Position numbers and translations under genes: made by a program. Below are positions 12,725-55,015 of a stretch of DNA of 64,000 bases, in pieces (position 1 is the first letter of the stretch; each line of letters starts with the position of its first letter). The stretch is from Candidatus Beckwithbacteria bacterium GW2011_GWC1_49_16 (lineage in GTDB: Bacteria > Patescibacteriota > Microgenomatia > UBA1400 > CG1-02-47-37). The notes beneath the pieces were generated by a model. The model did no database searches, was not told the origin of the DNA, and saw only the letters and a program-made list of their open reading frames with translations. Location: assembly GCA_001029675.1 (NCBI GenBank), contig CP011210.1, positions 581,663 to 645,662 on the forward strand. The letters run 5' to 3'.

Positions 12725-13434
12725 TCTGGCCCAAACAATTATCGCTGGTCTTGCCGGCATACAACGAAGCGGGGCGCTTGCCGCGGGCCCTGACCATCTG
12801 CCACCAGTGGAGTAAAAAATTTTCCGGCTGGGAGTTTATTTTTGTCAACGACGGTTCAAGCGACGCCGGCGAAAGCCTAATTCTCGCTAGTAAGTTTAAA
12901 CTCATATCTTACCCAACCAACCGGGGGAAGGGTTATGCGGTCAAAACCGGAGTAGCGGCAGCCACTAAACCGTTGGTGCTGGTCGCCGACATAGATTTTT
13001 CTACTCCCCTGTCTGAAATTCCCAAGTTTTATCAGGTTATCAGAACTGGCGCTGACGTCGCCTCGGGTTCGAGAAAGCTGGCTGGCGCCAAACTTTTAAA
13101 GCTTCAGCCAAAGATGCGTCAGTGGCTGGGCGAGCAGTTTACCCATCTGACTAACCTCTGGCTTGGCATGCGAGTGAGTGACTTTACCTGCGGTTTTAAA
13201 CTCTTTCTCGCCCCGGCAGCCAAAAAGTTATTCGGTTTGTCGCGGATCTCCCGCTGGGGCTATGACGCCGAGATTTTGTTTTTGGCCAAAGTCCTCGGCT
13301 ACCAACTGGTCGAGGTGCCGGTTACCTGGGAAAACGACGAAAGGACCCGGGTAAATATCTTACTGGACGTGCTGCGATCGCTGGGCGATTTAATCGCTAT
13401 CCGCTGGAACCAGCTAAGGGGAAAATACGCTTAG
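12703..13434 (+). CDS. polyprenol-phosphate glycosyltransferase (GT2, DPM1/ArnC-like)
   Basis: LSLVLPAYNEAGRL...IFVNDGSSD...VADIDFSTP. Shares an A8 tract with the upstream gene in a 22-nt overlap. Confidence 0.7.
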   Translation: MPYQKKVIWPKQLSLVLPAYNEAGRLPRALTICHQWSKKFSGWEFIFVNDGSSDAGESLILASKFKLISYPTNRGKGYAVKTGVAAATKPLVLVADIDFSTPLSEIPKFYQVIRTGADVASGSRKLAGAKLLKLQPKMRQWLGEQFTHLTNLWLGMRVSDFTCGFKLFLAPAAKKLFGLSRISRWGYDAEILFLAKVLGYQLVEVPVTWENDERTRVNILLDVLRSLGDLIAIRWNQLRGKYA

Positions 13435-38844: not shown

Positions 38845-39789
38845 TTGGCCCTTATGAAATTAAAATCTCTTTCAATAGTTGTACCCATTTTCAACGAGGC
38901 GGAAAGCATCATCCCTTTGTGCGATCAACTAACCGAAAACCTCAAGGTCTCAAGAACAAAATACGAAATTATTTTGGTCAATGACGGGAGCAACGACGGC
39001 AGCCAAGAAAAGATTGATGCTTGTAAAAAAACCTGGCAAAATGTGGTCGGCCTAAGGCTAAAAAGGAACTTAGGCAAAGCTGCGGCTCTACAGCTCGGTT
39101 TTGCAAAAGCTAAAAATGAAGTAATTGTAACTATGGACGGAGATTTACAAGATGATCCTAAAGAACTCAAAAAGTTACTTGTCAAACTTGATCTAGGCTA
39201 TGATTTGGTTATTGGCTGGAAAAAAAACCGCCAAGATTCTTTCACTAAGCGTCTTAGCTCAAGGCTTTTTAACTTGATAACCAACTTAATCTTCCGGCTT
39301 AACCTTCATGACTATAACAGCGGCTACAAAGCGTTTCGGGCAGAGTCGATTAAAAGAATTAGATTTTACGGAGAGTTACACCGCTTTATTCCAATCTTAG
39401 TGGCAGATAAAGGCTACCTAGTAACTGAGGTTCCGGTACATCACAGAAAAAGAAAATTTGGTAAATCGAAATACGGGTCCGGGAGATTTTTCCACGGCCT
39501 TTTTGATTTGACAACAGTTTTATTTTTAACTAAATTTCGCTTTAGACCACTCCATCTATTTGGTTATGTGGGGCTGGTATTTTTCCTTTTAGGAACCATT
39601 GGTGGTGGCTACTTAACTTGGCTTAAGTTTGTTTACGGTCAGGCAATTGGGCAACGACCGCTGCTGCTTTTAAGCTCGCTGTTGATTATCGTCGGCATTC
39701 AAATCGGGATTACTGGACTTTTAGGGGAATTGATTGTGGCTACGTTTTTAAAAGATGAACACCAGGAACTATCAGAAACACACCAGTAA
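38845..39789 (+). CDS. polyprenol-phosphate glycosyltransferase (GT2; ArnC/GtrB-like) with two C-terminal TM helices
   Basis: LSIVVPIFNEAESI...ILVNDGSNDGS...VVTMDGDLQDDP; C-terminal membrane hairpin. Confidence 0.8.
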   Translation: MALMKLKSLSIVVPIFNEAESIIPLCDQLTENLKVSRTKYEIILVNDGSNDGSQEKIDACKKTWQNVVGLRLKRNLGKAAALQLGFAKAKNEVIVTMDGDLQDDPKELKKLLVKLDLGYDLVIGWKKNRQDSFTKRLSSRLFNLITNLIFRLNLHDYNSGYKAFRAESIKRIRFYGELHRFIPILVADKGYLVTEVPVHHRKRKFGKSKYGSGRFFHGLFDLTTVLFLTKFRFRPLHLFGYVGLVFFLLGTIGGGYLTWLKFVYGQAIGQRPLLLLSSLLIIVGIQIGITGLLGELIVATFLKDEHQELSETHQ

Positions 39790-40342
39790 AAATTTCCTAC
39801 AAAAACTTTTAATAGGCAATTTCTATCAAAGGCTGTTAACTGTTGTGGCTAAAGTTAATATTGGTCGGATTTTAGACGCTGGTTGTGGCGAGGGCTTTAC
39901 TCTAAAAAGACTTAAGGAAAAAAATATCGGCAACTACCATGAGGGAATAGATATTTTAAGGACAGCCATTAAGCTGGGCCGGGAACTCAACCCCGATATT
40001 AAATTTTCCCTGGGAAATATTTATCACTTGCCGTATGAAAATAATTCCTTTGATCTGGTTTTATGCAATGAGGTTTTGGAACACTTGTCTAACCCAAAGG
40101 CAGCCCTCAAAGAAATTATCAGAGTGTCAAAAAAATACTGTTTAATCTCGGTGCCGAACGAACCCTGGTTTAGACTGGCCAATTTTCTGCGTCTGAAAAA
40201 CCTCAGCCGACTAGGAAACGATCCTGAACATATCCAGCATTGGTCAAAAGGAAGCCTGCTAAGTTTATTAAAAAAAGTTAGCCTCACTCCCATAGAAGTA
40301 AAATTACCTTTTCCTTGGATTCTGGTTTTAGCAGAAATTTAG
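39755..40342 (+). CDS. class I SAM-dependent methyltransferase
   Basis: ILDAGCGEGF motif I; DLVLCNEVLEH. Confidence 0.65.
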   Translation: MNTRNYQKHTSKNFLQKLLIGNFYQRLLTVVAKVNIGRILDAGCGEGFTLKRLKEKNIGNYHEGIDILRTAIKLGRELNPDIKFSLGNIYHLPYENNSFDLVLCNEVLEHLSNPKAALKEIIRVSKKYCLISVPNEPWFRLANFLRLKNLSRLGNDPEHIQHWSKGSLLSLLKKVSLTPIEVKLPFPWILVLAEI

Positions 40343-41073
40343 CTGACGGGGTTGTTCTCTAGGCTGACCAAGCGGATGCTATCGACACCTTTGATCGCTT
40401 TAAGATTTTGCATTAGGGTTTTGGGGTCGGTTTCAGGCTTAAGGGTAATGTTGTAGGCCAGTTCAACCGTCTTGGCTTGTTTGAAGCTGGTAAGATTCAA
40501 TAGTTGATGATTTTTCAGGTGGCGGGTAAAGAGCTTTAAAATTTTGTCGGTGGATGAGTGCTCGGGATAGTGAAAGGTTAACAGGTGGTCAGAAGCGGTG
40601 ATGGAACCGAAGCGGTAGCGGGTCATGAGTACAACAGCCAGGGAAATAAACAAGGTGCTGACAACGGCAATGGTGTAGTTGTTGGTACCCACGGCCATAC
40701 CGGTGATGAGAGCAATAAAGACAAAAGCGATATCGCGGGCGTCTTTGACGGCGGTTCTAAAACGGATGATGGAAAAGGCGCCGAAGAGCGAAAATGCCCG
40801 GGCTAAAGAATTGCCGACGATCATCATTAGGATCGAACCGGCCGCGGTCAAAAGCGCCAGGGTAAAAGTGAATGAGGCTGAATAAGACAAACCCTTATGG
40901 GTGCGCTGGTACACCAGAGCGACGGCGACTCCCAAAAGCAAACCAAAAAGAATGTTGAAGACAATTACCGGTAAAGGGTAGTCGAGGCTGGCACCGGTTA
41001 AGGTGAAAAACTGATTCATAAGCTTTAGTCGTTTTCTTCGGCCACTATACCACAGGCCTCTAAACTCAAGCAA
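40339..41073 (-). CDS. DUF4956-like integral membrane protein
   Basis: Four to five TM helices; SIIRFRTAVKDARDIAFVF motif. The likely start is the internal MNQFF, leaving almost no overlap with the VTC gene. Confidence 0.45.
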   Translation of the reverse strand: MLEFRGLWYSGRRKRLKLMNQFFTLTGASLDYPLPVIVFNILFGLLLGVAVALVYQRTHKGLSYSASFTFTLALLTAAGSILMMIVGNSLARAFSLFGAFSIIRFRTAVKDARDIAFVFIALITGMAVGTNNYTIAVVSTLFISLAVVLMTRYRFGSITASDHLLTFHYPEHSSTDKILKLFTRHLKNHQLLNLTSFKQAKTVELAYNITLKPETDPKTLMQNLKAIKGVDSIRLVSLENNPVS

Positions 41074-41759
41074 TACTTGGACAGAGATTGGCGGGGCAGG
41101 TCGAAAGTTTTAACCACCCCGGTCAAATAGTCTGGGACGCGGCCGGAAAACTTTAACTCCATGATAGCGTGGTCGGGAATGACTTGAGTCAGGCGAGGGG
41201 TGGCAAAAAGGTCGTGGCTTAATACCGCTTGGATTTGGTAATCAAAGGTGAGGCGGAAATTAGGATAAAAAGGGTCGATTAAAGGCTGGCGCAAGTAAGA
41301 AACCAGGATGGCCGGTTGGAGACGGTAAGCGACCAACTGGTGGTAAAACCGGTCTAAAGTACCGCTTTCGGTTTGGGGATTTGAACTAGACAGGCTGTCT
41401 TGGGAGCTTAAAAGTTTTTGGGTTTTGTCCCAGCGCAGCTGGGCGCGTTCTTTGGTTAAGAAGTCACCATACTTATATTTGATTTCCCAAAAAACCGGCG
41501 TTGAGGCGGTGGCCTTTTGAGAGTAGGTCCTTAAGCGATACTTGACCCTGTCTTTGACGCCGTATTGCTTTTGCCAGTAGGCTTGGTAGTCGGGAGTGTC
41601 CAGGTATAAAGTAGAGATGTAGTAGCTGGCGTCAGGTTTTTTTTGCGAGTGGCTGTCGGGAACCAGACCGCGGTTTAAAAGAAACTCCCTTACCTGGCGG
41701 TGCTGGTCCGGGGTTAATAGATACTTGTATTCCTGGCGCTCAAAGTTGGTTTTGATCAT
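41025..41759 (-). CDS. VTC-domain (CYTH-like triphosphate-tunnel) protein
   Basis: ERQEYKYLL (E.K motif), LYLDTPDYQAY and KDRVKYRLRTY match the VTC/polyphosphate-polymerase-domain pattern. Confidence 0.6.
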   Translation of the reverse strand: MIKTNFERQEYKYLLTPDQHRQVREFLLNRGLVPDSHSQKKPDASYYISTLYLDTPDYQAYWQKQYGVKDRVKYRLRTYSQKATASTPVFWEIKYKYGDFLTKERAQLRWDKTQKLLSSQDSLSSSNPQTESGTLDRFYHQLVAYRLQPAILVSYLRQPLIDPFYPNFRLTFDYQIQAVLSHDLFATPRLTQVIPDHAIMELKFSGRVPDYLTGVVKTFDLPRQSLSKYCLSLEACGIVAEEND

Positions 41760-43000
41760 AGTTGGCGGTTTAAATTATCAAAGTGGTCGAGCATCCACAG
41801 GCGGTAGTTTTTAATGTCAAGTAAATATTTAAGGTCGGGGTGGAACTTGTTGGTATCCTGCATCAGGGGAACTTGCAAACTCTGCCAGCTGTTTTCAAAA
41901 AATTCCAGATCTTGGCTGCGGTTGACCGGATCGTTGAGGTATTCTGCCAAGCGGCGGTTGCGTTCCGCTTTTACTTGAGGATCTTGCAGTAGTTTAATGG
42001 CCAGGGGGTTGAAAGTTTCGTCAATATCGACCAGGGTGGAGGTGCGGTCACCGGTATCCCAAGGGGTGAGAACAAATTTTTTAGTCTGGTGGTTGAAAAA
42101 CAAGCGGTTGTTGTGGCTTTTATCCTGATGGAGGCTGGCCATGAGTAAGCTGTGAACCCGCCAGGCAAGAAAGCTGTCTTTGTCTAGAAGTTGAAAAACT
42201 TCTTGGGCGGAAGAGCCAGGATCGTTGACTAAGTCTAAAAGCTGCTTTAAATATTTAAAGTCAGGATGGTTGGGGTCTTCCGGATAGGTACGCCAACGAT
42301 CGACGCTTTCGTAAATGTTGACATTCCAAGTTTCGCTTTGGTCTTTTTCGCCAAAAAGAGTCCCGGTTAAGTTTCTCCGGGTAAAAAAAGCTTCGTCCAG
42401 TTTCTCGGTAACATAATAAACCCCCTGGGATTGTTGGTTTATTGTTAAATTGGCAAACCAAGAATCAGGGGCCAATAAGCCTAACTTTCCTGCCCTGAAG
42501 TTGGCCAAATGTTCAAACACCAAGCCGCGGTCTTCGGGAATAATCAAATCCAAGCTGGCTAACCCGTTAAAGGTATCGCCGCCAGAAAAAATAATCCGCC
42601 AGGATTTTTTGGGCTGGGCCCAGTGGACCGCTCCGTTGCCGCGGAAACGCACCTTAACGTTGTGTTCCAAACCTTGAGGGTCGACGAAGACGGCCGGGAC
42701 TTCCTGATTATGTTCAATCACTACCGGAGTGGTGACGGGGTCGGGTAAAGACAACTGTAAAATTTCCAGGTTTTTACCTTTAATAAAAAGTTGATAGGTG
42801 TCTAAGCTATTGGGGTAAAAATAGTAATGAACAAAACCCAAGTCGGTGATCTTGGCAACTTTATTGATTAAGGTATAAGCCCAGAAGTTGTCGGTGAGGC
42901 GCTTGAGCCTAGGCTGGTGGCGAAAACGATAAAACAAATAACCGCCGGCGGCAGTGACGGCAAGCAGACTCAAACTTAACCAAAATAATTTTTTTTTCAT
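41756..43000 (-). CDS. CotH family protein (atypical kinase fold), N-terminal TM anchor
   Basis: QGVYYVTEKLDEAFFTRRNL N-lobe and HQDKSHNNRLFFNHQTKKFVLTPWD catalytic-loop region. AAA AAA AAA (A9) right after the ATG. Confidence 0.75.
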   Translation of the reverse strand: MKKKLFWLSLSLLAVTAAGGYLFYRFRHQPRLKRLTDNFWAYTLINKVAKITDLGFVHYYFYPNSLDTYQLFIKGKNLEILQLSLPDPVTTPVVIEHNQEVPAVFVDPQGLEHNVKVRFRGNGAVHWAQPKKSWRIIFSGGDTFNGLASLDLIIPEDRGLVFEHLANFRAGKLGLLAPDSWFANLTINQQSQGVYYVTEKLDEAFFTRRNLTGTLFGEKDQSETWNVNIYESVDRWRTYPEDPNHPDFKYLKQLLDLVNDPGSSAQEVFQLLDKDSFLAWRVHSLLMASLHQDKSHNNRLFFNHQTKKFVLTPWDTGDRTSTLVDIDETFNPLAIKLLQDPQVKAERNRRLAEYLNDPVNRSQDLEFFENSWQSLQVPLMQDTNKFHPDLKYLLDIKNYRLWMLDHFDNLNRQL

Positions 43001-43695
43001 TAAAATCCGCTGCCTATAAGTATTTCCCTAATTAAAAACCTGATAAACAGCCAACCGGTAGGCAAGGCTTTGGAGCCCGACTCGCCGCCGAGGCGGTTGC
43101 CCTCGCGGGTGGCGAGCTCGGCGATTTTAAGGCGTAGTTTTAGAGCCCTAATCGACATTTGGTACTCGATGACATAACCGGGGGCGTCGAGATCTAGCCT
43201 GTAAAAGGCCTTTTTGGTGATGGCCCGGTAGCCGTTGATGCTGTCAGTTAGTCTGCCGCCCCAAAATAGGTTAGCCAATAGAGTAAAGCCCTGGTTGGCC
43301 CAAGCCCTGAATTTTAAGACTTGGTCGTCTTCTTCGTTTCTGGACTCGGGCAGGAAGCGCGAGGCAATAGCTAAATCGTAACCCTGACCGAGGAGCTTTA
43401 GCAGTTTGGGAATATCCTGGGGGTTTTCGTTGCCGTCGGGGCTGAAAAAAACCAAATGCTGGCCGCGGGCTAGGCTAACCGCCAAACGGAAAGCCTCTCC
43501 CCGACCGGGTTTGATTTGGTTAATTAATCTAATCTTGTTTTTTTTGACAAATTCTTTGGTACCGTCGGTGGAGTTAAAATCAACCACAAAAGCTTCGTCG
43601 ACCTTACCAAAAGGAATTTTTTTGACTAGGGCTTTCATGCCGGTGATTTCGTTGCGGGTCAAAATCACCAGAGTGGTGTCAATTTTTTTAGCCAT
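43000..43695 (-). CDS. glycosyltransferase family 2
   Basis: LVILTRNEITG...VVDFNSTDGT motifs. Confidence 0.65.
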   Translation of the reverse strand: MAKKIDTTLVILTRNEITGMKALVKKIPFGKVDEAFVVDFNSTDGTKEFVKKNKIRLINQIKPGRGEAFRLAVSLARGQHLVFFSPDGNENPQDIPKLLKLLGQGYDLAIASRFLPESRNEEDDQVLKFRAWANQGFTLLANLFWGGRLTDSINGYRAITKKAFYRLDLDAPGYVIEYQMSIRALKLRLKIAELATREGNRLGGESGSKALPTGWLFIRFLIREILIGSGF

Positions 43696-44671
43696 GGGTT
43701 TTTTTATAATAGTCGATGACTTGGGGCAAGCCCTGGTTTAAAGTCGTTTCTGCCTTAAAGCCCAAAAGCTTTTGGGCTTTGCCGGCAGCGCAGTTTCTTC
43801 TTGGCTGGCCCGACGGTTTGGCTTGGTCAAAAACTATTTTAGTTTCGGTGCCGGCCAGCTTGACAATCAGCCGGGCTAAATCCCTGACGCTGATCTCTTC
43901 TTTGGTGCCAAGATTAATCGGATCAGGGCGGGGATATTTTTCTATCGCCAAAAGCATTCCCCTGACAATATCATCAATATAGATAAAGGAACGAGTGGCC
44001 GAGCCGTCGCCCCAAACCACTAGAGGGTTCTCGCCGTCAATCACCCTTTTGACTAAAGCCGGGATGACGTGGGAACTTTTGGGATCAAAGTTGTCTCTGG
44101 GGCCGTAGGCGTTGTAAGGACGAACAATGCCGACTTTGAGCTTAAACTCTTGGGCGTAAGTTTTGGCAAAAAGCTCGCCGATGCGCTTCCCCCAACCATA
44201 ACCGTAGTTGGTAATTTCCGGCTCATTGAGAAACCCTTCTGATTCTTGGGTGGGAAAGCTGCATTCTCGGGGATAGACACAAGCAGAAGAAACGTATAAC
44301 AACCTTTGGGGTGGATGGCTTTTGGCGGCGGCAAAGACATTGATGGCGGGCAGGGAATTTTCATATAAAAGCGTGGCCGGGTGAATTTGGTTATAGTGGA
44401 CGCCGCCGACATGGGCGGCCAGGTGAAAGATTAAATCCTGACCCTTGACTACTTTTTGGGCGGCTGCCGGGTTTTTGAGGTCGGCGGTGACCAGGTTGAT
44501 TTTGTCTTTGACTGCCGACAAAAACGGCGTTGGTTTCAAAGACAAGGTGGGAACGGTGACTTTGGCGCCAAAACCCACCAAGGCTTCAACTAAATGGGAA
44601 CCGATAAAGCCGGCGCCGCCGGTGACTAAAACGAGTTTATTTTTGAAAAAATTCATGGAATTTGTCGGCAA
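43688..44671 (-). CDS. NAD(P)-dependent epimerase/reductase, GDP-L-fucose synthase (Fcl/ColC)-like
   Basis: LVLVTGGAGFIGSH; YVSSACVYP resembles the Fcl GSSCIYP motif; YGWGKR (YxxxK). Confidence 0.55.
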   Translation of the reverse strand: MPTNSMNFFKNKLVLVTGGAGFIGSHLVEALVGFGAKVTVPTLSLKPTPFLSAVKDKINLVTADLKNPAAAQKVVKGQDLIFHLAAHVGGVHYNQIHPATLLYENSLPAINVFAAAKSHPPQRLLYVSSACVYPRECSFPTQESEGFLNEPEITNYGYGWGKRIGELFAKTYAQEFKLKVGIVRPYNAYGPRDNFDPKSSHVIPALVKRVIDGENPLVVWGDGSATRSFIYIDDIVRGMLLAIEKYPRPDPINLGTKEEISVRDLARLIVKLAGTETKIVFDQAKPSGQPRRNCAAGKAQKLLGFKAETTLNQGLPQVIDYYKKTHG

Positions 44672-45821
44672 TATATTCTACATCTTTTAGAGTCATGCCC
44701 GGGTGGCAGCCGAAGTAAAAGGCGCGCTGGTTTAAGTTTTTGGCTACCGGGTATTTATTTTCCAACCGGCCAAATGTTTTTTGATAGGCGGGTTGATTAA
44801 GAAGCGGCAACAACTCGCGAGTCTCGATGCCGTTTTTCTCCAGATAGATAATTAGGTCCCACTTGTCGATGTTTTTGTCTTTTAAGACTAAAGGAAACAT
44901 CATAAAGGCGTGAGTGAAGCCGGCAGGAATCGTCGGCAGTTGAAGTTTGTCTTCGAGTGGTTTTAAAAGTTTGATTAAAGCGGCTGCCAGCTTTTGGCGT
45001 TTTTTGATATTGACCTGATACTCCCCGGTCTTAAGCTGGCTTAAGCCGATAGCCGCTTCCATTTCGGTTAAGCGAAAATGGGAGCCGATCCGGTCAAAAC
45101 GAAAACGGTTTTTTAGAGCTTTTTTGAGTTTGGCCTGGTCATCATCGTCGATTGACAAGTAACTCTGGTGGCGGCCGTGGAAAATGTAGCTGCGGGCAAT
45201 TTGTTCCAAACGCTTAGAATTACCGGTTAAAAAGCCGCCGACGCCTGTGGGAAGAAGGTGGGCCACATAGGTAGAAAAGGCGGCTAAATCACCAAAGCTG
45301 CCTACTGGTTTGCCGGCAACTCCCACAAACATGGCGTCACAGGAATCTTCCAAAACTTTGAGCCGGTGACGGCGGGCCAGTTTTAAAATGGCCGGCATGT
45401 TGGCGGGCAGGCCCAAAACGTGAACGGGAATTAGGCCGCGGGTTTTTGGGCTTAGGTGCTTTAGTATTTGCTCGGGGTCGAGGTTAAAAGTATCGGGCTC
45501 AACGTCCACAAAGACCGGCTTTAGGCGCAGGCTATAGACAATGTTGGCGGTGGTGATAAAGGAAATAGCCGGCACCAAAACCTCGTCACCGTCCCGCCAG
45601 CCGTAGAATTCTTTTAGGGCGGCTAGCCCCGCCTGAAGGGCGCCGGTGCCGGATGAGGTAAAGATCGAGAAGCGACAGTGGTGGAGTTTGGCAAAGCTTT
45701 GCTCGAACTTTTTAATAAAAGGGCCATAGGTCAACCGGTTGGTGTCAAGCACCCGCTTAAGATAAGTTTTAGCTCGGGAGTTTAGCTTGATATCCCCGAC
45801 CGTGATTTGACGTTTAGTCAT
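44637..45821 (-). CDS. DegT-family PLP/PMP-dependent enzyme with the active-site Lys replaced by His (ColD/E1-like sugar 3-dehydratase candidate)
   Basis: AFSTYVAHLLPTGVGG aligns with SFYVTKNVATGEGG of the ArnB-like paralog, so K becomes H at the Schiff-base position. Confidence 0.65.
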   Translation of the reverse strand: MTKRQITVGDIKLNSRAKTYLKRVLDTNRLTYGPFIKKFEQSFAKLHHCRFSIFTSSGTGALQAGLAALKEFYGWRDGDEVLVPAISFITTANIVYSLRLKPVFVDVEPDTFNLDPEQILKHLSPKTRGLIPVHVLGLPANMPAILKLARRHRLKVLEDSCDAMFVGVAGKPVGSFGDLAAFSTYVAHLLPTGVGGFLTGNSKRLEQIARSYIFHGRHQSYLSIDDDDQAKLKKALKNRFRFDRIGSHFRLTEMEAAIGLSQLKTGEYQVNIKKRQKLAAALIKLLKPLEDKLQLPTIPAGFTHAFMMFPLVLKDKNIDKWDLIIYLEKNGIETRELLPLLNQPAYQKTFGRLENKYPVAKNLNQRAFYFGCHPGMTLKDVEYIADKFHEFFQK

Positions 45822-45834
45822 AAACCGGATTGTA

Positions 45835-47385
45835 TCATAGCTTATAGACTTTAAAGCCGGGGTTGAAATAGACCAGATTGAAATCCAGGGGTTGGTGGTT
45901 GACTTTGACCACTAAATAGTCGAAGGAGTAGAGGTTCTTCACTGCCAGAAAGTCGGCGCTGGTGAAATTGTCGTAACCCTTTAAAGCTTGCCTCCTTTGC
46001 TGCCAATCTATGGCGTACTGGGCGGAATAAAAAATTAAACCCCCGTCTTTGGCGCTGGAAACCAGGTTTCTTTCGGAAAAACTTCTGAAACCGGGAATTT
46101 CTGGAGGAGCTAGAAACACTGCTTCAACCGGCGAGTTGACTTTAGCCCAAACCTGAACGTCGAGCCAGTCATCTCTGCCTTTAAGGTCGACTAAGGGGTT
46201 AGGATAATGAAAATAATCTGGTAATTTGACCTGGGGCTTGACCAACACCAGAACAAAGAGAACTTGCGTCAAGACTAATATGAGAATATGGGCAGAAATG
46301 TCTTTTTTTGACTTGAGATTTAGTTTGGGCTTGAAAATAAATAAACCTAAAGGGAGTAGGCCGATGGCCAGAAAGTGCCACAGAGTCAGATGCATGCCCC
46401 AGAAATAAACACCGGTCAAAGCAACACCGGTCAGAATTCTAACCGGCCAAGAAGAGGCCATTAAGCAAAAATAGGCGGCTGCGGCAAAAGAGATCAGAGC
46501 GACAATAAAAACAAAACTGGCGGCTCTTAATAGCTGGAGTTGGATTAATTGGGGAGATGGTAGGAGTGAACTTATTATCAGGTGAAAAAGAAACAAGCCG
46601 GAACAAATAACCAACAAAAGCTTAATCGGCTTAAAATAGAGGCCGAAAATTTTTTTCTTTAAGGCTAACCAGGCTGTACCCAGAAGCGCTAGCCAAAGGG
46701 CAAAGTTGCCCCAGGCAGTCCAGGGCCAAAGATGGGGGAAACTATAAGTGCCGCGGCTTTCCAGGATGTCAAACCAGGCTTGATTGATGGATGGCAGGAA
46801 ACTGAAAAATCTATTACCACTGGGTTTAAAAAACAAGGCAAGCCAAAAAATTGCCAAGGGGATAGGGATGGTCGGGTTAATTAAAGCGGCCAATAAAATC
46901 AGCCCCAGGCTCGACCAGGACTTGCGTCTAAGCATCGAGGTTAACGCCAAAAGCGAAACAGCCAAACTTAGATCGCGGCTAATAAAGTAAAAATGATGCG
47001 ACAGGTAACCGATGCGGGCCAGCCATTTGGGGGCGATAAACAAAACCGCGGCCAGAAGGGCAATGGAGCGGGAGCGATAAATGGTAAACGCCAACCAATA
47101 AATTCCTAAATATAAAAGGTAAAGACTAACCAGATACAAGCCCAAAAACACCCAAGCGAGGCTGGCGCCGCTAATGGTTTTTAGCCAAACGATGACGTAG
47201 TTAAAAGGCGAGTAAAGATAGTGGGGCTGGTTGAAGTAGTAATCGTTTGGGTAGAGGGCAGGGTTTAGAAGTTTATTTAAATAAGGCAGGTAGTGATGGT
47301 GGTCTAAAACGTCAAAGTAATAGCCGTGAATCAAAACGCTGGCCAGAGTGATTAAAAGCAAGAATAAAAAGTCTTTTGGTTTCAT
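45835..47385 (-). CDS. polytopic membrane protein with a C-terminal roughly 130-aa soluble domain; function unknown
   Basis: 516 aa, at least 10 TM helices, no recognisable motif. Confidence 0.35.
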   Translation of the reverse strand: MKPKDFLFLLLITLASVLIHGYYFDVLDHHHYLPYLNKLLNPALYPNDYYFNQPHYLYSPFNYVIVWLKTISGASLAWVFLGLYLVSLYLLYLGIYWLAFTIYRSRSIALLAAVLFIAPKWLARIGYLSHHFYFISRDLSLAVSLLALTSMLRRKSWSSLGLILLAALINPTIPIPLAIFWLALFFKPSGNRFFSFLPSINQAWFDILESRGTYSFPHLWPWTAWGNFALWLALLGTAWLALKKKIFGLYFKPIKLLLVICSGLFLFHLIISSLLPSPQLIQLQLLRAASFVFIVALISFAAAAYFCLMASSWPVRILTGVALTGVYFWGMHLTLWHFLAIGLLPLGLFIFKPKLNLKSKKDISAHILILVLTQVLFVLVLVKPQVKLPDYFHYPNPLVDLKGRDDWLDVQVWAKVNSPVEAVFLAPPEIPGFRSFSERNLVSSAKDGGLIFYSAQYAIDWQQRRQALKGYDNFTSADFLAVKNLYSFDYLVVKVNHQPLDFNLVYFNPGFKVYKL

Positions 47386-47419
47386 GACTAATACCTCTAG
47401 TGTATTATAGAGATAAATT

Positions 47420-48199
47420 ATGCGTAAAGACTACCTACCCGTGAATAAGCTCACGGCCAAAAAAACAGAGGCTAAATTCGTCGAAGATTTTTGGACCAAA
47501 AGGTGGCAAAAGCAAGCGCTCAAGTGGCAGGCCGCCAACATAGAGAACGAGGCCGAGTTTAAGGCTGTAAGTCGATACTTCAACCAACTGCCAAAGGGAG
47601 CTGGGATTTTGGACGGAGGTTGCGGCTTGGGGGTCTGGACTCGGTATTTTACCGACCGGGGTCATAAAACCGTGGGTTTGGATATCAGCCAAAAAACCAT
47701 TACCAGGTTAAAGCGAAACTTTCCCAAGTACAAATTTGTAGCCGGCGATATCCGCCGCCTGCCTTTTAAATCTGGCAGTTTTGATGCTTACTTTTCCTGG
47801 GGGACGTTTGAGCATTTTGAAGAGGGTCTGGGACTTTGCTTTGATGAAGCCTACCGGGTGCTTAAATCGGGCGGCCTGCTTTTGATTAGCGTCCCCTACT
47901 ATAACTTAAGACTGAGACTTAAAGACTCGTTGGTGCTGCCACCTGAAGGCAAAAAGATAAGATTTTACCAGTGGCGCTTGACTGCCAACGAGCTTAAAAG
48001 AGAGTTCTATATTCATGGCTTTAAAGTGGATACGGTCAGGCCGATTTACAAAGGCCACGGTTTATCCAGACTGGTGAAACATGATTTGGGGGTCGGACGG
48101 CAAAGTTTTCTTCACAAACCACTGATGGCGCTACTTTACCCTTTTATGCCGCCAGGCTTTGTGGCTCACATGCTGATCGCCGCCGCTTATAAACGGTAA
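47420..48199 (+). CDS. class I SAM-dependent methyltransferase
   Basis: ILDGGCGLGVW motif I. Confidence 0.65.
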   Translation: MRKDYLPVNKLTAKKTEAKFVEDFWTKRWQKQALKWQAANIENEAEFKAVSRYFNQLPKGAGILDGGCGLGVWTRYFTDRGHKTVGLDISQKTITRLKRNFPKYKFVAGDIRRLPFKSGSFDAYFSWGTFEHFEEGLGLCFDEAYRVLKSGGLLLISVPYYNLRLRLKDSLVLPPEGKKIRFYQWRLTANELKREFYIHGFKVDTVRPIYKGHGLSRLVKHDLGVGRQSFLHKPLMALLYPFMPPGFVAHMLIAAAYKR

Positions 48200-50391
48200 T
48201 CCCCTTCTTCTTCAAAGTCGATCTCGTTATCTATCAGCTGGTTGTCTTTGAAGATAAACTCTTTGCGGGGGAAAATTGGTTTTTTCAAGTAAGAAGCCAA
48301 GCCGATGTGGTTGTCGCTAATGGTATTGCCGCTGATTTCCGGCTGGCTTGAGTCTTTAACTGCTATACCCATGTTGCAGTTTTTGAAGGTGTTGCCGGTA
48401 ACTTTGGGGCTGGCGGTTTCACCTAAAGACAAACATTTGTCGCCGGCACCGTCAACCAGGTTGCCGGTTATATCGGGGGAGGCCGAACCAAAATCCATGC
48501 CGTCGTTGCCGTTTGATAAAAATCTGTTGCCGGCAACCAGTCCGGTGGCAAAATCGAGATCCAAACCGTCAAAATCGTTGTCGGCAAAAATATTGTTGCT
48601 AATGCTGACGTCGGCGTACTTGACGTTTAGGCCGTCGTCGCCGCGGTTGAAGCGAAAAGTGCTGCCGCTGACTACAATATTGTCGGCGCCATGGGCAGCC
48701 AAAGCGCCGCTAAAGTAAGCGCCGTTGACTATGGCCTCGCTGCCGTACTCGACCGTTACCCCGTTAAAGCTACTGCCGTTGGCTGACTCTCCCAAAACGG
48801 CAAAAACGCCCCAAGGTTTGTCTGGGTCTTGGGTGGTTAAAGTGGCCCCATTGGCGGTGACCGGGCTCAAGCTGACAAACGAGGCTCCCTCGGCAAAAGA
48901 CAGTCTGGCGCCGGGCAGAAGCCTAACCTGGTAGCCGGGAGGAATAACTCTGGTTTGATTGATTAAATGGGTGCCGGGGCCGAAAGTGAGTTGCTTAGGC
49001 GTCAAAAACAGCTGGTCAAAATCCGCAAACTCTGACTCGATGACGCTTTTGGCCGGGTCGGCGACGTCGATTGGCTCTGTAACCGGCAAAGGAAAACCGC
49101 TGACTTCATCGGGAAGGCTGTCTGAGTCAAGTTTTTGTTGAATTAATTGAAACTGGCTAATTAACTCTCGGCGGGTTTTTTCAAGCTGGCGCAAATAGCC
49201 GATGTTGGAGAAAAACTTTTTATAATCCTGAAAGACGGCGGTTTTGGTTTGGGCTGCCAGTTGGTCGTAGTATGCCAAATCATCTGCCAGGTTATCGGGA
49301 TTGTTGACATAAGCCGCCAAGATCTGGTTTCTTTTTGCCAGCCAGTCGGGATTTTTTAACACCCGGGAAGCTAAAGGATGATAGTTGGCCGGCCAACCCA
49401 CTCCCCCCAAGACGTCCCAGGGCATAACCATAAATTTGCCCAGGGCCGGATGCCAATATAAACGAAAATTGTGTAAGTGATCTTGATGGATGCTGCCCAT
49501 GAGTACCGAGTGCGCCTGCCAGGCAATAAAGTTATCGATATCCAAAATATAAGGCAAGCGGGTAAAAAACTCCTCGTCGGAAACGTTATTTAACAAATCT
49601 AAAAGCAAACTCAACTCGGTGTAGTTATCCTCGGCAAAAACTTCGTCCTGGCTGTACTTGCGCCAGAACTTTAAAGAAGCAAAGATGGGTTGTTGTTCCG
49701 CCAGCCTTACTTCCTGGTCGATTTCACCATAGAGATTGCCAATCGGCAAGTCGTTTTTTTCCAGAAAAGCCTCGTTCCACTGCTCGGTTTGCCAATAAAC
49801 TCCTTCGGTTTGGCCGTTAACTTTTAAAACCACGAATCGACTTTCGGGCACAATCAGCCCCATTTTTTTAGCCCGGTAGTTTGATAGTTCCTCAAGATAC
49901 ATGCCCCGATCTTCAGGGATAATCAAGTTAATGGCCGTCTGGCCAAAAAAAGGCTGGCCAGAACCAAAGTTAACTCGCCAAGATTTTTTGGGCCTGGTCC
50001 AGTGATCAAAATCGACGCCGCGGTAGCGCACTCTAACTTGATACTGTCTCCCCTCAAAATCGAAGCTGGCGGGGACAAACTGTTTGAACTTGTCGGCCAG
50101 AATGCCGCCGGTGGCCTTGGGGTCAGGCAGGTTGCGGTTCAAAAAAACATAGTCGTCCGGATTGAGAGTCAGTTCATAAACCGGCAACCCTGATGATTTA
50201 AACCAATAAGGCAAATAGAAAACGTCGGTCAATTTGGTTAAATAGGTGACGACGTTAGTTTGCCAACCAAAAGCGGTGGGGTTGTGGATTTTAATTAAAT
50301 AGATCAAACCCACAACGAGAATAATTGCTGTATACAAGAACAGTTTAAATCTATTTTTCATAGAAGCTAATTCCCCACTGTCGGCGTTCAA
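48187..50391 (-). CDS. CotH kinase-fold domain fused to C-terminal parallel beta-helix (PbH1) repeats; N-terminal TM anchor
   Basis: 734 aa. EGVYWQTEQWNEAFLEKNDL and HQDHLHNFRLYWHPALGKFMVMPWD (CotH). C-terminal repeats ...NGNDGMDFG...GNTFKNCNMGIAV...GNTISDNHIGLA. Confidence 0.75.
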   Translation of the reverse strand: MNADSGELASMKNRFKLFLYTAIILVVGLIYLIKIHNPTAFGWQTNVVTYLTKLTDVFYLPYWFKSSGLPVYELTLNPDDYVFLNRNLPDPKATGGILADKFKQFVPASFDFEGRQYQVRVRYRGVDFDHWTRPKKSWRVNFGSGQPFFGQTAINLIIPEDRGMYLEELSNYRAKKMGLIVPESRFVVLKVNGQTEGVYWQTEQWNEAFLEKNDLPIGNLYGEIDQEVRLAEQQPIFASLKFWRKYSQDEVFAEDNYTELSLLLDLLNNVSDEEFFTRLPYILDIDNFIAWQAHSVLMGSIHQDHLHNFRLYWHPALGKFMVMPWDVLGGVGWPANYHPLASRVLKNPDWLAKRNQILAAYVNNPDNLADDLAYYDQLAAQTKTAVFQDYKKFFSNIGYLRQLEKTRRELISQFQLIQQKLDSDSLPDEVSGFPLPVTEPIDVADPAKSVIESEFADFDQLFLTPKQLTFGPGTHLINQTRVIPPGYQVRLLPGARLSFAEGASFVSLSPVTANGATLTTQDPDKPWGVFAVLGESANGSSFNGVTVEYGSEAIVNGAYFSGALAAHGADNIVVSGSTFRFNRGDDGLNVKYADVSISNNIFADNDFDGLDLDFATGLVAGNRFLSNGNDGMDFGSASPDITGNLVDGAGDKCLSLGETASPKVTGNTFKNCNMGIAVKDSSQPEISGNTISDNHIGLASYLKKPIFPRKEFIFKDNQLIDNEIDFEEEGDYRL

Positions 50392-51412: not shown

Positions 51413-52471
51413 ATGACAATTATAATGAAAGTGCAGGAAAAAATCTTAAAAATTATGGCGGAACACCCTACGTTTATCATCGCCGAGGCGGGATCCAACC
51501 ACAACGGCGACGTCACCCAAGCGGTCAAACTGATCAGGGCCGCGGCTGACGCGGGGGCTGACGCGGTTAAGTTTCAAACTTTTACTGCTGGGCAGTTAAC
51601 GACAAAAAGTGGGCCGAGCGCTTCCTATCAAATAAAAAACACTAAAATAAAAAGCCAGTGGCAATTGCTTCGCTCAATCGAGTTAGATTATAAATGGTAC
51701 AACAAGCTAGTAAAACTCGCCAAAAAGTTGGGCATTATTTTTTTGTCTACCCCGCATGGATATATAGAGTCTGTGAATTTTTTAAAGGATAAAGTGCCCG
51801 CTTGGAAGACAGGTTCTGGGGACTTAACCAATCTTCCACTATTAAAATACTTAGGTGAGTCTGGCAAACCGATAATTTTGTCGACCGGGATGGCGACCGT
51901 CGCCGAGACCAGAGAAGCGGTTAAGACCATTGAAAAGACCGGCAACAGAAAAATTACCATTCTTCACTGCACCACTAACTACCCTTGTCCGCCTGAAGAA
52001 GCCAACGTGGCGGCGATTATGGATCTTAAAAAAAATTTCCCCCGCTACCGGATCGGCTTTTCTGACCACACCCTGGGGATGACGGCGGCGATCATGGCGG
52101 TGGCTTATGGGGCGGCGGCAGTGGAAAAACACCTCACCCTGGACAGAAACTTGCCCGGGCCGGACCAGAAAAACTCGCTTGAACCCGACGAGTTTAAACA
52201 AATGGTGAAGCAAATTAGGTTGGCAGAAGTTTTACGCGGCAGCGGCAAGAAAAGGCCTTTCCCCAGCGAGCTGATTATCGCCCAAATGGCCAGAAAAGCG
52301 GTGATCGCCGCGGTAGACATTACCAAAGGCACCAAGATCACCGCAGCGATGCTGACGATAAAAAGGCCGGCCAAAGGCGGTTTGGCGCCAAAGATGCTCG
52401 ATAACATCGTGGGCAAAACGGCCAAACGAAGCATCAAGGCTGACTCACAACTGAAAAAAGGTGATTTTTGA
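51413..52471 (+). CDS. nonulosonic acid synthase (NeuB/LegI/PseI family, with C-terminal SAF domain)
   Basis: FIIAEAGSNHNGD signature of N-acetylneuraminate-synthase-family enzymes. Confidence 0.85.
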   Translation: MTIIMKVQEKILKIMAEHPTFIIAEAGSNHNGDVTQAVKLIRAAADAGADAVKFQTFTAGQLTTKSGPSASYQIKNTKIKSQWQLLRSIELDYKWYNKLVKLAKKLGIIFLSTPHGYIESVNFLKDKVPAWKTGSGDLTNLPLLKYLGESGKPIILSTGMATVAETREAVKTIEKTGNRKITILHCTTNYPCPPEEANVAAIMDLKKNFPRYRIGFSDHTLGMTAAIMAVAYGAAAVEKHLTLDRNLPGPDQKNSLEPDEFKQMVKQIRLAEVLRGSGKKRPFPSELIIAQMARKAVIAAVDITKGTKITAAMLTIKRPAKGGLAPKMLDNIVGKTAKRSIKADSQLKKGDF

Positions 52472-53541
52472 TGGTAGGGGGGAATTTTGCATTTGAGTTT
52501 GCGGCTCTTGCCAGGAAAGAAGTAAGGTTAAACCTGCCACAAACCTCAAGCTATTGGTTTCAGAACGGCCGAGGAGCAATTGCCGGGTTAATTAAACTTT
52601 TAAAGCTTAAACCAGGAGACGAGGTGTTGGTGCCTGAATACCACTGCGAAGAAGTGACCAAGCCTTTTTTCAACCGAGGGATTAAATGTAACTACTACCG
52701 GATTGATAAAAACCTAAGCATAAGGCTAAAAGAGATCAAAAAACAGGTGAGTGATAAAACCCGTCTGGTGGTGGTGATTACTTTTATGGGTTTTCCCCAA
52801 GAAGAAAGGGAGGAAATTGTTAAGTGGTGTCAGAAAAATAAGCTGGCGCTTTTGGAGGATAACGTGCCTATCGCCCGGGATAAAATCTCGCCCCGCCCGG
52901 GGGCCTTCCAGATATACAGCTTCAGAAAACACACCGGAGTGGTCGGTGGAGCGGTCTTAGTTTTACCCCGCGGCAAAAAGAAAAGTGACTATCCAACCTT
53001 AGAATTTTTGCCGGCTAAAGCCACTGCGGAAATATTTCAGCTAGCGGCAGCGATGTCCAGGTTTTTATCGCAAGTGATACCAATAAAGATTTTGTGGCTT
53101 GTCACCTACAAGCTTCACCGGCTGGGTGAAGATTTGCTGGACGATGAGATCAGAGGCGCTTCGAAGTTGTCGAGGTTTTTAATCATAAGAGCTGGCTGGC
53201 AGAAAATAATACAGAAGAGACAGGCCAATAGCGGCTATTTAACCGAAAGGCTTATAAAAGCCGGGCTAAAGCCTTTGATTAAAAAAGTGCCCCCCAAGGC
53301 GACGCCTTTGATGTTGCCGGTGGTGATCGACAACCCGGAAAGAGTCAAACAAAAATTGAGAACTCGGGGTTTATTTGTAACTCAGTTCTGGCACCTACCT
53401 AAGTACTTGAATAAAAGGTTGGCGCCGACGGCAGACTGGATTACCAAGCATGTAATTTACTTAACCGTCGACCAAAGATACGGGGAAAAAGAGATGGAAC
53501 TCCAGGCAGTAACCTTGGCTCGTGTTAAAATAAACCCATGA
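52468..53541 (+). CDS. divergent DegT-like PLP-fold protein; function unknown
   Basis: LKPGDEVLVPEYHCEEV...LALLEDN...IYSFRKHTGVVGG parallels the DegT fold topology but is degenerate. Confidence 0.4.
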   Translation: MMVGGNFAFEFAALARKEVRLNLPQTSSYWFQNGRGAIAGLIKLLKLKPGDEVLVPEYHCEEVTKPFFNRGIKCNYYRIDKNLSIRLKEIKKQVSDKTRLVVVITFMGFPQEEREEIVKWCQKNKLALLEDNVPIARDKISPRPGAFQIYSFRKHTGVVGGAVLVLPRGKKKSDYPTLEFLPAKATAEIFQLAAAMSRFLSQVIPIKILWLVTYKLHRLGEDLLDDEIRGASKLSRFLIIRAGWQKIIQKRQANSGYLTERLIKAGLKPLIKKVPPKATPLMLPVVIDNPERVKQKLRTRGLFVTQFWHLPKYLNKRLAPTADWITKHVIYLTVDQRYGEKEMELQAVTLARVKINP

Positions 53542-54596
53542 GGCTGGCTTATCTTAGCGGGACCAGGGCCGATTTTGGTTTGATGAGGACCCTTTTGAAA
53601 AAAATAGAAAAAGAGTCCAAATGGCAGCTTAAGCTGATGGTGACGGGGATGCATCTGATGGATGAGTTTGGCTATACCGTTTCTGAAGTGGATAAACAGT
53701 TTAAGGTAGCCCGGGTAATCGAGGCGGTTTTTACTAAAGACGATCGGGAGTCTATGGCCCGGTTTGTGGGCCGGTGTTTGACCGGAGTGACCGAGGCTTT
53801 GATTAAACACCAGGCTGACGTGGTGATAGTTTTGGGTGATCGGGGCGAACAACTGGCCATGGCGACAGCGGCGGCCTACCTTAATATACCCATCGTCCAC
53901 CTTCATGGCGGGGAGGAAACGACGACGGTGGACAACAAAGCCAGAAAGACCATTAGCCAACTAACAGACTGGCACTTGCCGGCAAGCCAAGGGGCGGCCA
54001 AAAGGCTGACCGCCATGGGGGTAGATAAAAAGAAAATTACCGTGGTCGGGGCGCCGGGACTGGACGAAATCAGACACCTGCCTCAGGCGGGGAAAAAAGA
54101 CCTGATCGTGGTGCTTGAGCATCCGGACGAAAACGAAGCCCAAGCCGGAGAACAGGTAGAAAAGACGCTCTCGGCGGCGGTAAGCTTTGGTTTACCGGTA
54201 AAAGTGATTTACCCTAACGCCGACGCCGGCGGCAGAAAAATGATTGTGGTAATAGAAAAATTTGTAGCCAAATACCCAAACTTGGTTAAAAGTTATAAAA
54301 GCATCACCAGGGAAGACTACCTTAAGCTTTTGGGGCAGGCGAAGGTCTTGGTGGGCAATAGTTCCAGCGGCTTGATCGAATCCCCGGCTTTTAGGCTGCC
54401 AGTGGTCAACGTCGGCCCGAGGCAAAAAGGCCGGGAGCGGGCCAAAAACGTCATCGACGCGGGGTATGACCAAAAGGAAATCAAGGCGGCGGTCAACAAA
54501 GCTTTGAAAATGAAGTTTAAACAGATTACCAACCCTTATGGCGACGGTAAAACTGCCCAAAGGGTGGTAAAATTTCTTAATCAGACCTTTTTATGA
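53538..54596 (+). CDS. UDP-N-acetylglucosamine 2-epimerase (hydrolysing), NeuC/LegG-like
   Basis: LAYLSGTRADFGLMRTLLKK...LKLMVTGMHL matches NeuC-family N-termini. Confidence 0.8.
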   Translation: MRLAYLSGTRADFGLMRTLLKKIEKESKWQLKLMVTGMHLMDEFGYTVSEVDKQFKVARVIEAVFTKDDRESMARFVGRCLTGVTEALIKHQADVVIVLGDRGEQLAMATAAAYLNIPIVHLHGGEETTTVDNKARKTISQLTDWHLPASQGAAKRLTAMGVDKKKITVVGAPGLDEIRHLPQAGKKDLIVVLEHPDENEAQAGEQVEKTLSAAVSFGLPVKVIYPNADAGGRKMIVVIEKFVAKYPNLVKSYKSITREDYLKLLGQAKVLVGNSSSGLIESPAFRLPVVNVGPRQKGRERAKNVIDAGYDQKEIKAAVNKALKMKFKQITNPYGDGKTAQRVVKFLNQTFL

Positions 54597-54991: not shown

Positions 54992-55015
54992 ACAGTAATC
55001 GGTAATCAGTAATGA
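54988..55015. repeat. tandem heptanucleotide repeat (GTAAnCn) x4, ending in the ATG of the gene at 55012
   Basis: gtaaaca gtaatcg gtaatca gtaatga. Confidence 0.7.

Follow-up and report, generated by a model that had tools for sequence, protein, structure and literature searches.

A CotH-VTC-DUF4956 gene module beside a deoxysugar cassette in a Candidatus Beckwithbacteria glycosylation locus: a possible envelope phosphorylation or polyphosphate module

Secreted proteins with the CotH kinase fold are, to our knowledge, common in bacteria, and we know of no established role for them outside spores and of no extracellular phosphoryl donor that they could use. The question is raised anew by a 64,000-nucleotide stretch of the genome of Candidatus Beckwithbacteria bacterium GW2011_GWC1_49_16 (contig CP011210.1, positions 581,663 to 645,662; hereinafter the window), a member of the Candidate Phyla Radiation (CPR), in which three co-directional minus-strand genes encode a CotH family protein, a VTC domain protein and a DUF4956 membrane protein. 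The initial annotation of this DNA, made from the sequence alone, proposed that the three proteins phosphorylate, or add polyphosphate to, a surface glycan or glycoprotein. The list of open reading frames (ORFs) confirms the position and orientation of the genes, and all motifs quoted then (QGVYYVTEKLDEAF and HQDKSHNNRLFFNHQTKKFVLTPWD in CotH, ERQEYKYLL and KDRVKYRLRTY in VTC, SIIRFRT in DUF4956) are found in the translations. As argued below, VTC and DUF4956 form a near-obligate gene pair that is usually accompanied by an exported CotH; that the whole is an envelope module in which VTC makes polyphosphate, DUF4956 carries it across the membrane and CotH phosphorylates a surface glycan is the reading that we favor, tentatively and as somewhat short of an even proposition.

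As a gene neighborhood, the triad is already known, with no mechanism attached. The cotH gene, a gene described as 'poly-phosphate polymerase', DUF4956 and DUF4832 are accessory genes contiguous with Gram-positive pel operons (PMC7112168); in Streptococcus intermedius, the triad is SIR_1594/1593/1592 (mBio 2025, PMC12345266; Whitfield 2020, PMC7112168), and the gene table of the NELoc-2 locus of Clostridium perfringens lists it beside a chitin-synthase-like glycosyltransferase (GT) (PMC2879425). Our search of the literature on DUF4956 function found nothing beyond the two Pel papers and the NELoc-2 table; a paper on the stalks of Zetaproteobacteria deals with an unrelated SH3-CotH protein. According to the authors of the S. 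intermedius study, the synteny was not encountered outside Pel loci (PMC12345266). Nevertheless, the triad occurs well beyond them: a scan with a DUF4956 alignment of one genome per species yielded at least 551 loci in many phyla.

We examined the best 80 of these loci, which belong to Patescibacteria, Gamma- and Deltaproteobacteria-type metagenome-assembled genomes, Planctomycetota, Fermentibacterota, Gemmatimonadota, Omnitrophota, KSB1, Zixibacteria and the cultured Marinicella sediminis. According to local hidden Markov model searches, VTC adjoins DUF4956 in 79 of the 80 loci, nearly always upstream and on the same strand, and under stricter gene calls the two genes are directly adjacent in 73/79. 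CotH is encoded within 10 kb in 62/79 loci, the commonest order being CotH, VTC, DUF4956. Conversely, among metagenome loci anchored on VTC, DUF4956 follows in 33 of 38, the exceptions including Nudix-VTC fusions. Thus, VTC and DUF4956 make up a near-obligate pair, the core of the module, and an exported CotH is its usual companion; the recurrence of the triad in bacteria, asserted in the initial annotation, is borne out by these counts and by the published pel neighborhoods (PMC7112168, PMC12345266). The explanation that three unrelated genes came to lie side by side by chance in a gene-dense small genome draws on the compactness of CPR genomes and on the short or overlapping junctions that are common across the window. 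Because dozens of loci in unrelated phyla share this gene order, as do published Firmicute and Bifidobacterium loci, chance adjacency is refuted and retains a negligible probability. VTC-DUF4956 fusion proteins were looked for and none was found, the long ORF of locus L023 holding only DUF4956; long VTC ORFs in L126 and L136 have low-complexity Arg/Gly/Pro-rich N-terminal extensions that, judged by eye, look like over-extended ORF calls in high-GC DNA. M. sediminis strain F2 (L074, NZ_MVBD01000007.1 170249-190917), a cultured gammaproteobacterium, carries a canonical CotH-VTC-DUF4956 operon.

The VTC protein of the window matches PF09359 with 124.6 bits against a cut-off of 23, over profile positions 1-232 of 235. 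Comparison of the single sequence with PDB gave no match, and a profile was needed; that of 17 homologs retrieved yeast Vtc4 (3g3q, 2.2e-13; 8i6v, 3.9e-13), then Vtc2 and Vtc3, and nothing else. In this alignment, R8, K12, R75, R77, E92, K94 and Y155 correspond to R196, K200, R264, R266, E279, K281 and Y359 of Vtc4, and R157, R169, D173, E201, K203, S227 and K228 to R361, R373, D377, E426, K428, S457 and K458. All 14 of these residues aligned to the Vtc4 tunnel are invariant in the 17 homologs, and K200, R264, R266, K281, Y359, R361, R373, E426, S457 and K458 of Vtc4 are reportedly functionally important. Both the full-length family match and the retained tunnel residues agree with the original assignment. 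The protein is soluble, with no membrane segment and no SPX domain, and is predicted to act in the cytoplasm as a polyphosphate polymerase. In bacteria, PPK enzymes are credited with making polyphosphate.

It could be argued that VTC is not a polymerase at all but a triphosphatase or a nucleotide-processing tunnel enzyme, with DUF4956 acting as an anchor or sensor through its ACT-like domain, in which case the module would signal or scavenge phosphate. The tunnel superfamily is functionally diverse, an extra Glu (E10) gives the protein an R-x-E-x-K start resembling the ExExK motif, and Nudix-VTC fusions that lack a DUF4956 neighbor (L116:2729-3892 and L120:9301-10578), and which branch off separately among bacterial or viral VTC-domain proteins, suggest nucleotide-related chemistry in some relatives. 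However, the match is to the full length of Pfam VTC and not to CYTH, the only PDB relatives found by profile are Vtc4, Vtc2 and Vtc3, and all basic residues aligned to the Vtc4 tunnel are kept, so that a non-polymerase function appears improbable, more so than the rivals discussed below.

The DUF4956 protein matches PF16316 with 54.1 bits (cut-off 30.6), and its AlphaFold2 model (predicted local distance difference test, pLDDT, 80) consists of five helices followed by a C-terminal beta-alpha-beta-beta-alpha-beta domain which, in a structure comparison of the model, resembles ACT, NikR-C and the C-terminal domain of MgtC; the family initially assigned to a protein of four to five membrane helices with an SIIRFRT motif is therefore correct. 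The family is large (5130 representatives at 50% identity, E<=1e-10), and its members are mostly 200-240 aa long (best 150 of the 5130 representatives). R86, F87, R88, T89, K92 and D96 are invariant in 40 homologs, and the invariant residues are grouped in two loops, THxGxSYS and IRFRTxxKxxxD. Loop 1 has on average 2.5 Lys and Arg per sequence, loop 3 has 4.0 and the segment behind the last helix has 2.6, compared with about 0 on the other side of the membrane; because the positive charges are confined in this manner, both invariant loops, including RFRT...K...D, and the ACT-like domain are presumably cytoplasmic, on the side of VTC. The similarity to the MgtC/SapB family is weak (32.1 bits against an NCBIfam cut-off of 214), and a Pfam scan of the window protein gave no PF02308 match, although some homologs have one. 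DUF4956 is related to the MgtC/SapB family (PF02308) and not a member of it: it makes up a Pfam family of its own, characterized by the invariant RFRT...K...D motif, and, unlike the MgtC/SapB/YhiD proteins, it adjoins VTC.

A close parallel among known systems is the eukaryotic VTC complex (yeast Vtc4/Vtc3/Vtc2/Vtc1; 3g3q, 7ytj, 8i6v), in which the same tunnel domain, with the same tunnel and catalytic residues, is also obligatorily paired with a membrane component, and coupled synthesis and translocation is therefore a reasonable model for the bacterial pair. The differences are that the bacterial enzyme stands alone as a soluble protein of 244 aa that comprises the VTC domain only, without SPX, that its membrane partner is DUF4956/MgtC-like and not the three-helix DUF202, with no structural similarity detected between the two, and that E10 occupies the place of Vtc4 T198. 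In Fermentibacterota, a porin gene lies between CotH and VTC in 16 loci (L013:2844-3869, L028:8182-9216, L032:1654-2715 and 13 more). Pfam Porin_O_P is matched by 11 of 14 of these porins (best E 2.5e-7), and OprP and OprO are the only meaningful matches of their profile in PDB, a methyltransferase at E 1.4 being noise; OprO/OprP-like porins are of the phosphate/pyrophosphate-selective type. The Fermentibacterota loci also encode a small LTD protein after DUF4956.

These porins within operons can equally be claimed for the alternative in which polyphosphate itself is the product: VTC-DUF4956 would make and export a surface or extracellular polyanion that captures cations, cross-links the matrix or forms a capsule-like layer, CotH would bind, anchor or trim it, and the glycan genes would be mere neighbors in envelope loci. 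VTC-DUF4956 is the invariant core, CotH is missing from the surrounding 10 kb in 17/79 loci, glycan genes are not encoded nearby in about half of the loci, and DUF4956 is akin to MgtC, whose family is linked to the physiology of Mg2+ and phosphate (PMC12345266). This view does not readily accommodate the full kinase-type catalytic set in nearly all CotH partners, the usual fusion of CotH to a beta-helix, or the sugar genes that, in the Beckwithbacteria lineage, are inserted in the module and translationally coupled to it, and we regard it as rather unlikely. The beta-helix is presumably a carbohydrate-binding type of domain.

The CotH protein of the triad (hereinafter short CotH) scores 73.3 bits with Pfam CotH (cut-off 23.8) and consists of a membrane anchor (residues 5-24), a conserved juxtamembrane helix (K50, D53) and a kinase-fold domain, without a beta-helix. 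A Foldseek search with its AlphaFold2 model (pLDDT 86.8) has Bacillus cereus CotH as the best match (5jd9/5jda, E 3e-19, template modeling score 0.69-0.80), phmmer connects it to 5jd9 with an E-value of 2.5e-8, and the match of the model to Fam20 (4kqa) is weak (E 7.8e-3). Accordingly, the CotH kinase fold claimed for this protein is supported. Its active-site motifs are H291-Q-D293-x-x-H296-N297 (the HxDxxHN loop) and P313-W-D315. Inactive forms of Bacillus subtilis CotH are those with D228 or D251 mutated (PMC7821199); the equivalent of D251 (D315 of the PWD motif) and the loop Asn (N297) are both present and about 98% conserved, and the residue aligned to the catalytic D228 is Q292, the Asp coming next as D293. 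Plain conservation of the catalytic Asp, as assumed at first, had to be discarded, the residue-by-residue check giving this one-residue shift; what stands is the retention of the Lys/Glu/Asn/Asp set that binds nucleotide and metal in Bacillus CotH and in Fam20 kinases, which share the fold. In the short CotH loop, the Asp is located four residues before the Asn, in contrast to five in the DGxxHN loop of Bacillus. Across the module, the loop comes in two forms, DGxx[HK]N in Bacillus and Fermentibacterota, and HxDxxHN in CPR (including the short CotH of the window), Desulfobacterota, Planctomycetota and others; the HxD Asp and the PWD Asp are absent jointly in L002, L077 and P0163, which argues for D293 as the working catalytic residue.

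Among 55 CotH partners of VTC-DUF4956, the Asn is kept in 54, the Asp of xWD likewise in 54, and conservation reaches 90% or more in the columns of the Lys (KKS) and the Glu (TE). The partners are mostly 800-1100 aa long and contain Beta_helix (33/55), NosD (24/55), LTD (18/55) and type IX secretion system (T9SS) sorting tails (6/55), and those of Fermentibacterota have a short signal peptide directly N-terminal of the kinase domain. Because of the signal peptides and the T9SS tails, the CotH component can be classed as exported with some assurance. Relatives of the short CotH have the N-terminal flank of the anchor as the more positive one in 13 of 21 cases. Whereas Bacillus CotH resides in the mother-cell cytoplasm, the short CotH is membrane-anchored and probably external, and no substrate of the CotB/CotG type is found in the context of this organism. 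Likeness to glycan kinases of the Fam20B/POMK type comes from context, namely the beta-helices of 33/55 partners and the synteny with sugar cassettes. Desulfobacterota, Planctomycetota and gammaproteobacterial versions of the module encode, directly upstream of CotH, a protein of about 400-500 aa that is anchored at its N terminus and matches no Pfam family (L012:617-1792, L016:4927-6414, L022:4903-6441 and 7 more).

Export of CotH tells against a third possibility, a regulatory protein kinase, under which CotH would phosphorylate proteins such as the glycosylation or polysaccharide-synthesis machinery, S-layer or other surface proteins, in the way that Bacillus CotH phosphorylates CotB and CotG, while VTC-DUF4956 would tune the local supply of phosphate or ATP in the manner of MgtC. 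The sole CotH activity that has been demonstrated is Ser/Thr protein phosphorylation (PMC7821199), and regulation of Pel synthesis by CotH was proposed by Whitfield et al. (PMC7112168). In S. intermedius, deletion of the DUF4956 homolog raised Pel and deletion of the CotH homolog lowered it, which looks regulatory, and both deletions cut aggregation by more than 50% in artificial sputum medium (PMC12345266). The CotH partners elsewhere are, however, set apart from cytoplasmic ATP and regulators, and their beta-helix and LTD fusions point to polymer binding rather than signaling; we would not put the regulatory view above the polyphosphate product, and consider it similarly unlikely.

The window holds a second, long CotH upstream of the run (Table 1). 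It is 734 aa long (Pfam CotH 4.2e-27, Beta_helix 4.6e-18, NosD 5.8e-12), probably starts at an ATG near 50361 (MKNRFK...), has intact IHQDHLHN and PWD motifs, and shows the architecture of the usual VTC-DUF4956 partner in other lineages. A third, divergent paralog is encoded at 13431-15089 (-) (552 aa; Pfam CotH 9.5e-9). Metagenomic relatives of the locus, whose proteins are 54-57% identical, help to explain the arrangement. In L081-L084, L088, L089 and L091 the order is long CotH with a beta-helix, DUF6798, sugar genes, short CotH, VTC, DUF4956, the sugar genes between DUF6798 and the short CotH being a variable DegT, SDR (short-chain dehydrogenase/reductase) or GT2 set; in L081-L084, L089 and L091, DUF6798 is immediately preceded, in the same orientation, by the ortholog of the long CotH. 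The sole difference of the window is an opposite-strand methyltransferase gene between long CotH and DUF6798. Because in other CPR bacteria a long CotH directly abuts VTC, the simplest reading is that a sugar cassette, together with a duplicated and shortened CotH, was inserted inside an ancestral module. DUF6798 genes repeatedly adjoin CotH genes in Microgenomates-type contigs (L081-L093).

Taken together, the phosphorylation or polyphosphate module that we favor could work as follows. The sugar genes would make a dideoxyhexose, load it onto polyprenyl phosphate and, on the outer side of the membrane, attach it to a surface glycoconjugate; VTC would use ATP to polymerize phosphate on the inner side; DUF4956, docking VTC through its conserved basic cytoplasmic loops, would let the product through the membrane, in much the way the membrane domain of eukaryotic VTC does; and the external CotH domain would put phosphate or a polyphosphate chain on a surface glycan or glycoprotein. 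The donor for CotH would be exported polyphosphate or ATP, and the former comes into consideration because ATP is not available outside the cell. A stronger form of the same idea, that soluble VTC and DUF4956 are a bacterial VTC-type polyphosphate synthase/translocase whose exported product, having passed an OprO/P-like porin in diderms, is the donor for secreted CotH that phosphorylates or polyphosphorylates surface glycans, we hold to be unlikely as it stands; if true, it would explain how kinase-fold enzymes work extracellularly without ATP.

Several observations weigh against this scheme. The membrane domain of DUF4956 has no detectable similarity, by profile or by structure, to the yeast VTC channel or to solved structures, so that its role in translocation is pure inference. 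The VTC residue E10, in place of Vtc4 T198, is nearer to the ExExK motif of hydrolytic tunnel enzymes, and our literature search found no biochemical data on any bacterial VTC-domain protein. Several close orthologs of the short CotH carry E, N or G at the position of the presumed catalytic D293, and hence the activity of this protein is likely but not certain; furthermore, the charge rule is ambiguous for its anchor (+3 N-terminally against +4 C-terminally). In S. intermedius, deletion of VTC had no reported effect, and the DUF4956 and CotH deletions shifted Pel in opposite directions (PMC12345266). The porin and the sugar-cassette insertion come from one lineage each, that is, from few evolutionary events. 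Among the relatives, L085, L086 and L087 have CotH, DUF6798, sugar genes and short CotH with no VTC-DUF4956 within 3-7 kb downstream, and L090 and L093 have VTC-DUF4956 without the short CotH; on this account, the short CotH is bound to the sugar cassette at least as closely as to VTC-DUF4956. Finally, GT2, GT4, SDR, DegT or NeuB genes are present within 10 kb in only 38 of the 80 loci, a raw count with no background frequency, and they are dense near the module in Patescibacteria and absent in many other lineages. The link of the triad to glycans is lineage-specific. Its support is circumstantial, namely the beta-helix in 33/55 partners, the cassette between long CotH and VTC, and the Pel phenotypes; as a general property it is overstated, and three relatives keep the cassette and the short CotH without VTC-DUF4956 beside them.

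Table 1. Coordinates of the features in the window and of DUF6798 genes in related loci
Feature	Location	Coordinates	Strand	Characteristics
Long CotH paralog	window	48187..50391	(-)	N-terminal anchor, CotH kinase domain, right-handed beta-helix; upstream of run
Candidate promoter spacer	window	47386..47419	(-)	34 nt, divergent, contains TATAAT
DUF6798 membrane protein, gene 1 of run	window	45835..47385	(-)	516 aa, multi-pass; Pfam DUF6798 2.5e-11
DegT-family enzyme, gene 2	window	44637..45821	(-)	Pfam DegT 1.6e-83; NCBIfam best RfbH 2e-61
SDR, gene 3	window	43688..44671	(-)	Pfam Epimerase 7.9e-57; NCBIfam best GDP-L-fucose synthase 9.1e-57
GT2, gene 4	window	43000..43695	(-)	231 aa; Pfam Glycos_transf_2 5.9e-15
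Short CotH, gene 5	window	41756..43000	(-)	414 aa; Pfam CotH 3.3e-20
VTC, gene 6	window	41025..41759	(-)	244 aa; PF09359 6e-36
DUF4956, gene 7	window	40339..41019	(-)	226 aa; PF16316 2e-14
NeuB	window	51413-52471
UDP-GlcNAc 2-epimerase	window	53538-54596
Second DegT	window	55012-56151
DUF6798 in relatives	related loci	L081:5448-6998, L083:4531-6081, L085:4695-6248, L086:3393-4955, L087:7640-9004

In the window, the triad sits, as proposed, within a deoxysugar/GT operon, at the 3' end of a minus-strand run from 47385 to 40339 that comprises seven genes head to tail with junctions that overlap or have gaps of at most 13 nt; the seven genes are a single, closely packed operon-like unit. From the sequence, the GT2/CotH junction reads TAATG, stop and start sharing 1 nt, and the CotH/VTC junction reads ATGA, a 4-nt overlap; between VTC and DUF4956, the stop codon TAA is followed by 5 nt and the DUF4956 ATG, so the close coupling of the three genes is as described initially. 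The DUF4956 ORF as listed spans 40339-41073 from a TTG start. This start is too early; the true one is the ATG at 41019, and the resulting 226-aa product is 100% identical to a database protein (P0026); the VTC protein is 100% identical to one from Candidatus Beckwithbacteria bacterium GW2011_GWB1_47_15. The sole gap upstream of the run that is big enough for a candidate promoter is the 34-nt spacer, and a promoter-like match lies at 47445-47417 on the minus strand, the number of such matches in the region not exceeding that in shuffled controls. A scan of 38.7-50.6 kb for promoters and terminators returned counts no higher than in shuffled sequence and therefore speaks neither for nor against a single operon; on the point that no promoter or terminator should separate the triad from the sugar genes, the junctions agree and the scan, being indistinguishable from the controls, is silent. 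An Rfam scan of the whole window found no RNA family. The DUF4956 stop overlaps that of a convergent plus-strand methyltransferase gene (39755-40342) at 40339-40342, and this overlap of the stop codons leaves no room for a terminator between the two genes.

The GT2, the GDP-fucose-synthase-like SDR and the His-variant DegT upstream of the triad are all as claimed according to Pfam and NCBIfam, the specific NCBIfam matches of the sugar genes (RfbH, GDP-L-fucose synthase, AglJ, Dol-P hexose transferase) being all below the curated cut-offs. DegT has His at the usual Schiff-base Lys position (motif STYVAH) and is probably a ColD/RfbH-like 3-dehydratase, and the SDR is possibly a ColC-like reductase/epimerase; the pair at 43688-45821 (-) looks like ColD/ColC of colitose (3,6-dideoxyhexose) synthesis, a reading that presumes the general scheme of the colitose pathway. 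The GT2 resembles AglJ (5.1e-25) and dolichyl- or polyprenyl-phosphate hexose transferases (Dol-P hexose transferase, 4.4e-10), both under the cut-offs. The protein encoded by the first gene, with its DUF6798 domain at the C terminus, may be a GT-C-like glycosyltransferase that uses polyprenyl-phosphate sugars; its profile has no relative by sequence in PDB. The arrangement is reminiscent of the Arn-type pathway (ArnB/ArnC/ArnT) and of other pathways of polyprenyl-phosphate-sugar decoration, the shared logic being that DegT and SDR enzymes tailor a nucleotide sugar, that the small GT2 is similar to polyprenyl-phosphate glycosyltransferases, and that a large protein with many membrane passes presumably acts as the transferase on the outside; here, in contrast, the sugar resembles a 3,6-dideoxyhexose (the ColD/ColC-like pair) and not Ara4N, and the candidate membrane transferase is the uncharacterized DUF6798 protein.

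According to the listing of Pfam families, the whole 64-kb window is a glycosylation locus. Over positions 1-64000 it encodes eight PMT_2-type GT-C membrane proteins, about six GT4, at least five GT2, several SDRs, a PseB-like dehydratase, an ArnC-like GT2, a cytidylyltransferase and a Wzx-like protein; the gene set, with the three enzymes at 51-56 kb in Table 1, suggests nonulosonic acid synthesis and extracytoplasmic glycosylation. A gene for a UDP-xylose synthase-like enzyme, invoked initially in support of an analogy with the xylose kinase Fam20B, was considered and rejected: the SDRs at 7865-9803 are generic, their scores with UDP-xylose synthase models lying far under the cut-off, and the analogy is therefore left without specific support. 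The G+C content drops to 0.39-0.42 between 20000 and 30000, compared to about 0.49 on either side, and this part of the glycosylation region may be a cassette that came from another source.

Compared with the pel accessory module, the locus shares the contiguity of the three families beside polysaccharide biosynthesis genes, a CotH predicted to be secreted, and a DUF4956 protein that has been described as an MgtC-like membrane domain with an ACT domain. It differs in its operon partners (DUF6798, DegT, SDR and GT2 in a polyprenyl-phosphate, GT-C-type glycosylation locus of a CPR bacterium), in its minimal CotH of 414 aa without FN3 or beta-helix, in the lack of a DUF4832 gene, and in the deoxysugar cassette between a second, long CotH and VTC; among the best 25 of 49 Pfam families in one listing for the window, no Pel-specific family (pelDEADAFG) is present. 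What is new is the occurrence in CPR bacteria in a non-Pel context, with a minimal CotH and a sugar cassette within the module, and the cross-phylum picture of a core pair, an exported CotH and an OprO/P-like porin. The survey turns a remark on 'accessory genes' into a concrete hypothesis for cultured carriers of the module, namely S. intermedius, C. perfringens, bifidobacteria and M. sediminis, the last being a possible experimental model. In CPR bacteria, whose glycosylation loci are unusually large, the module is a candidate for a further chemical modification of the cell surface, which these episymbionts presumably use for contact with the host.

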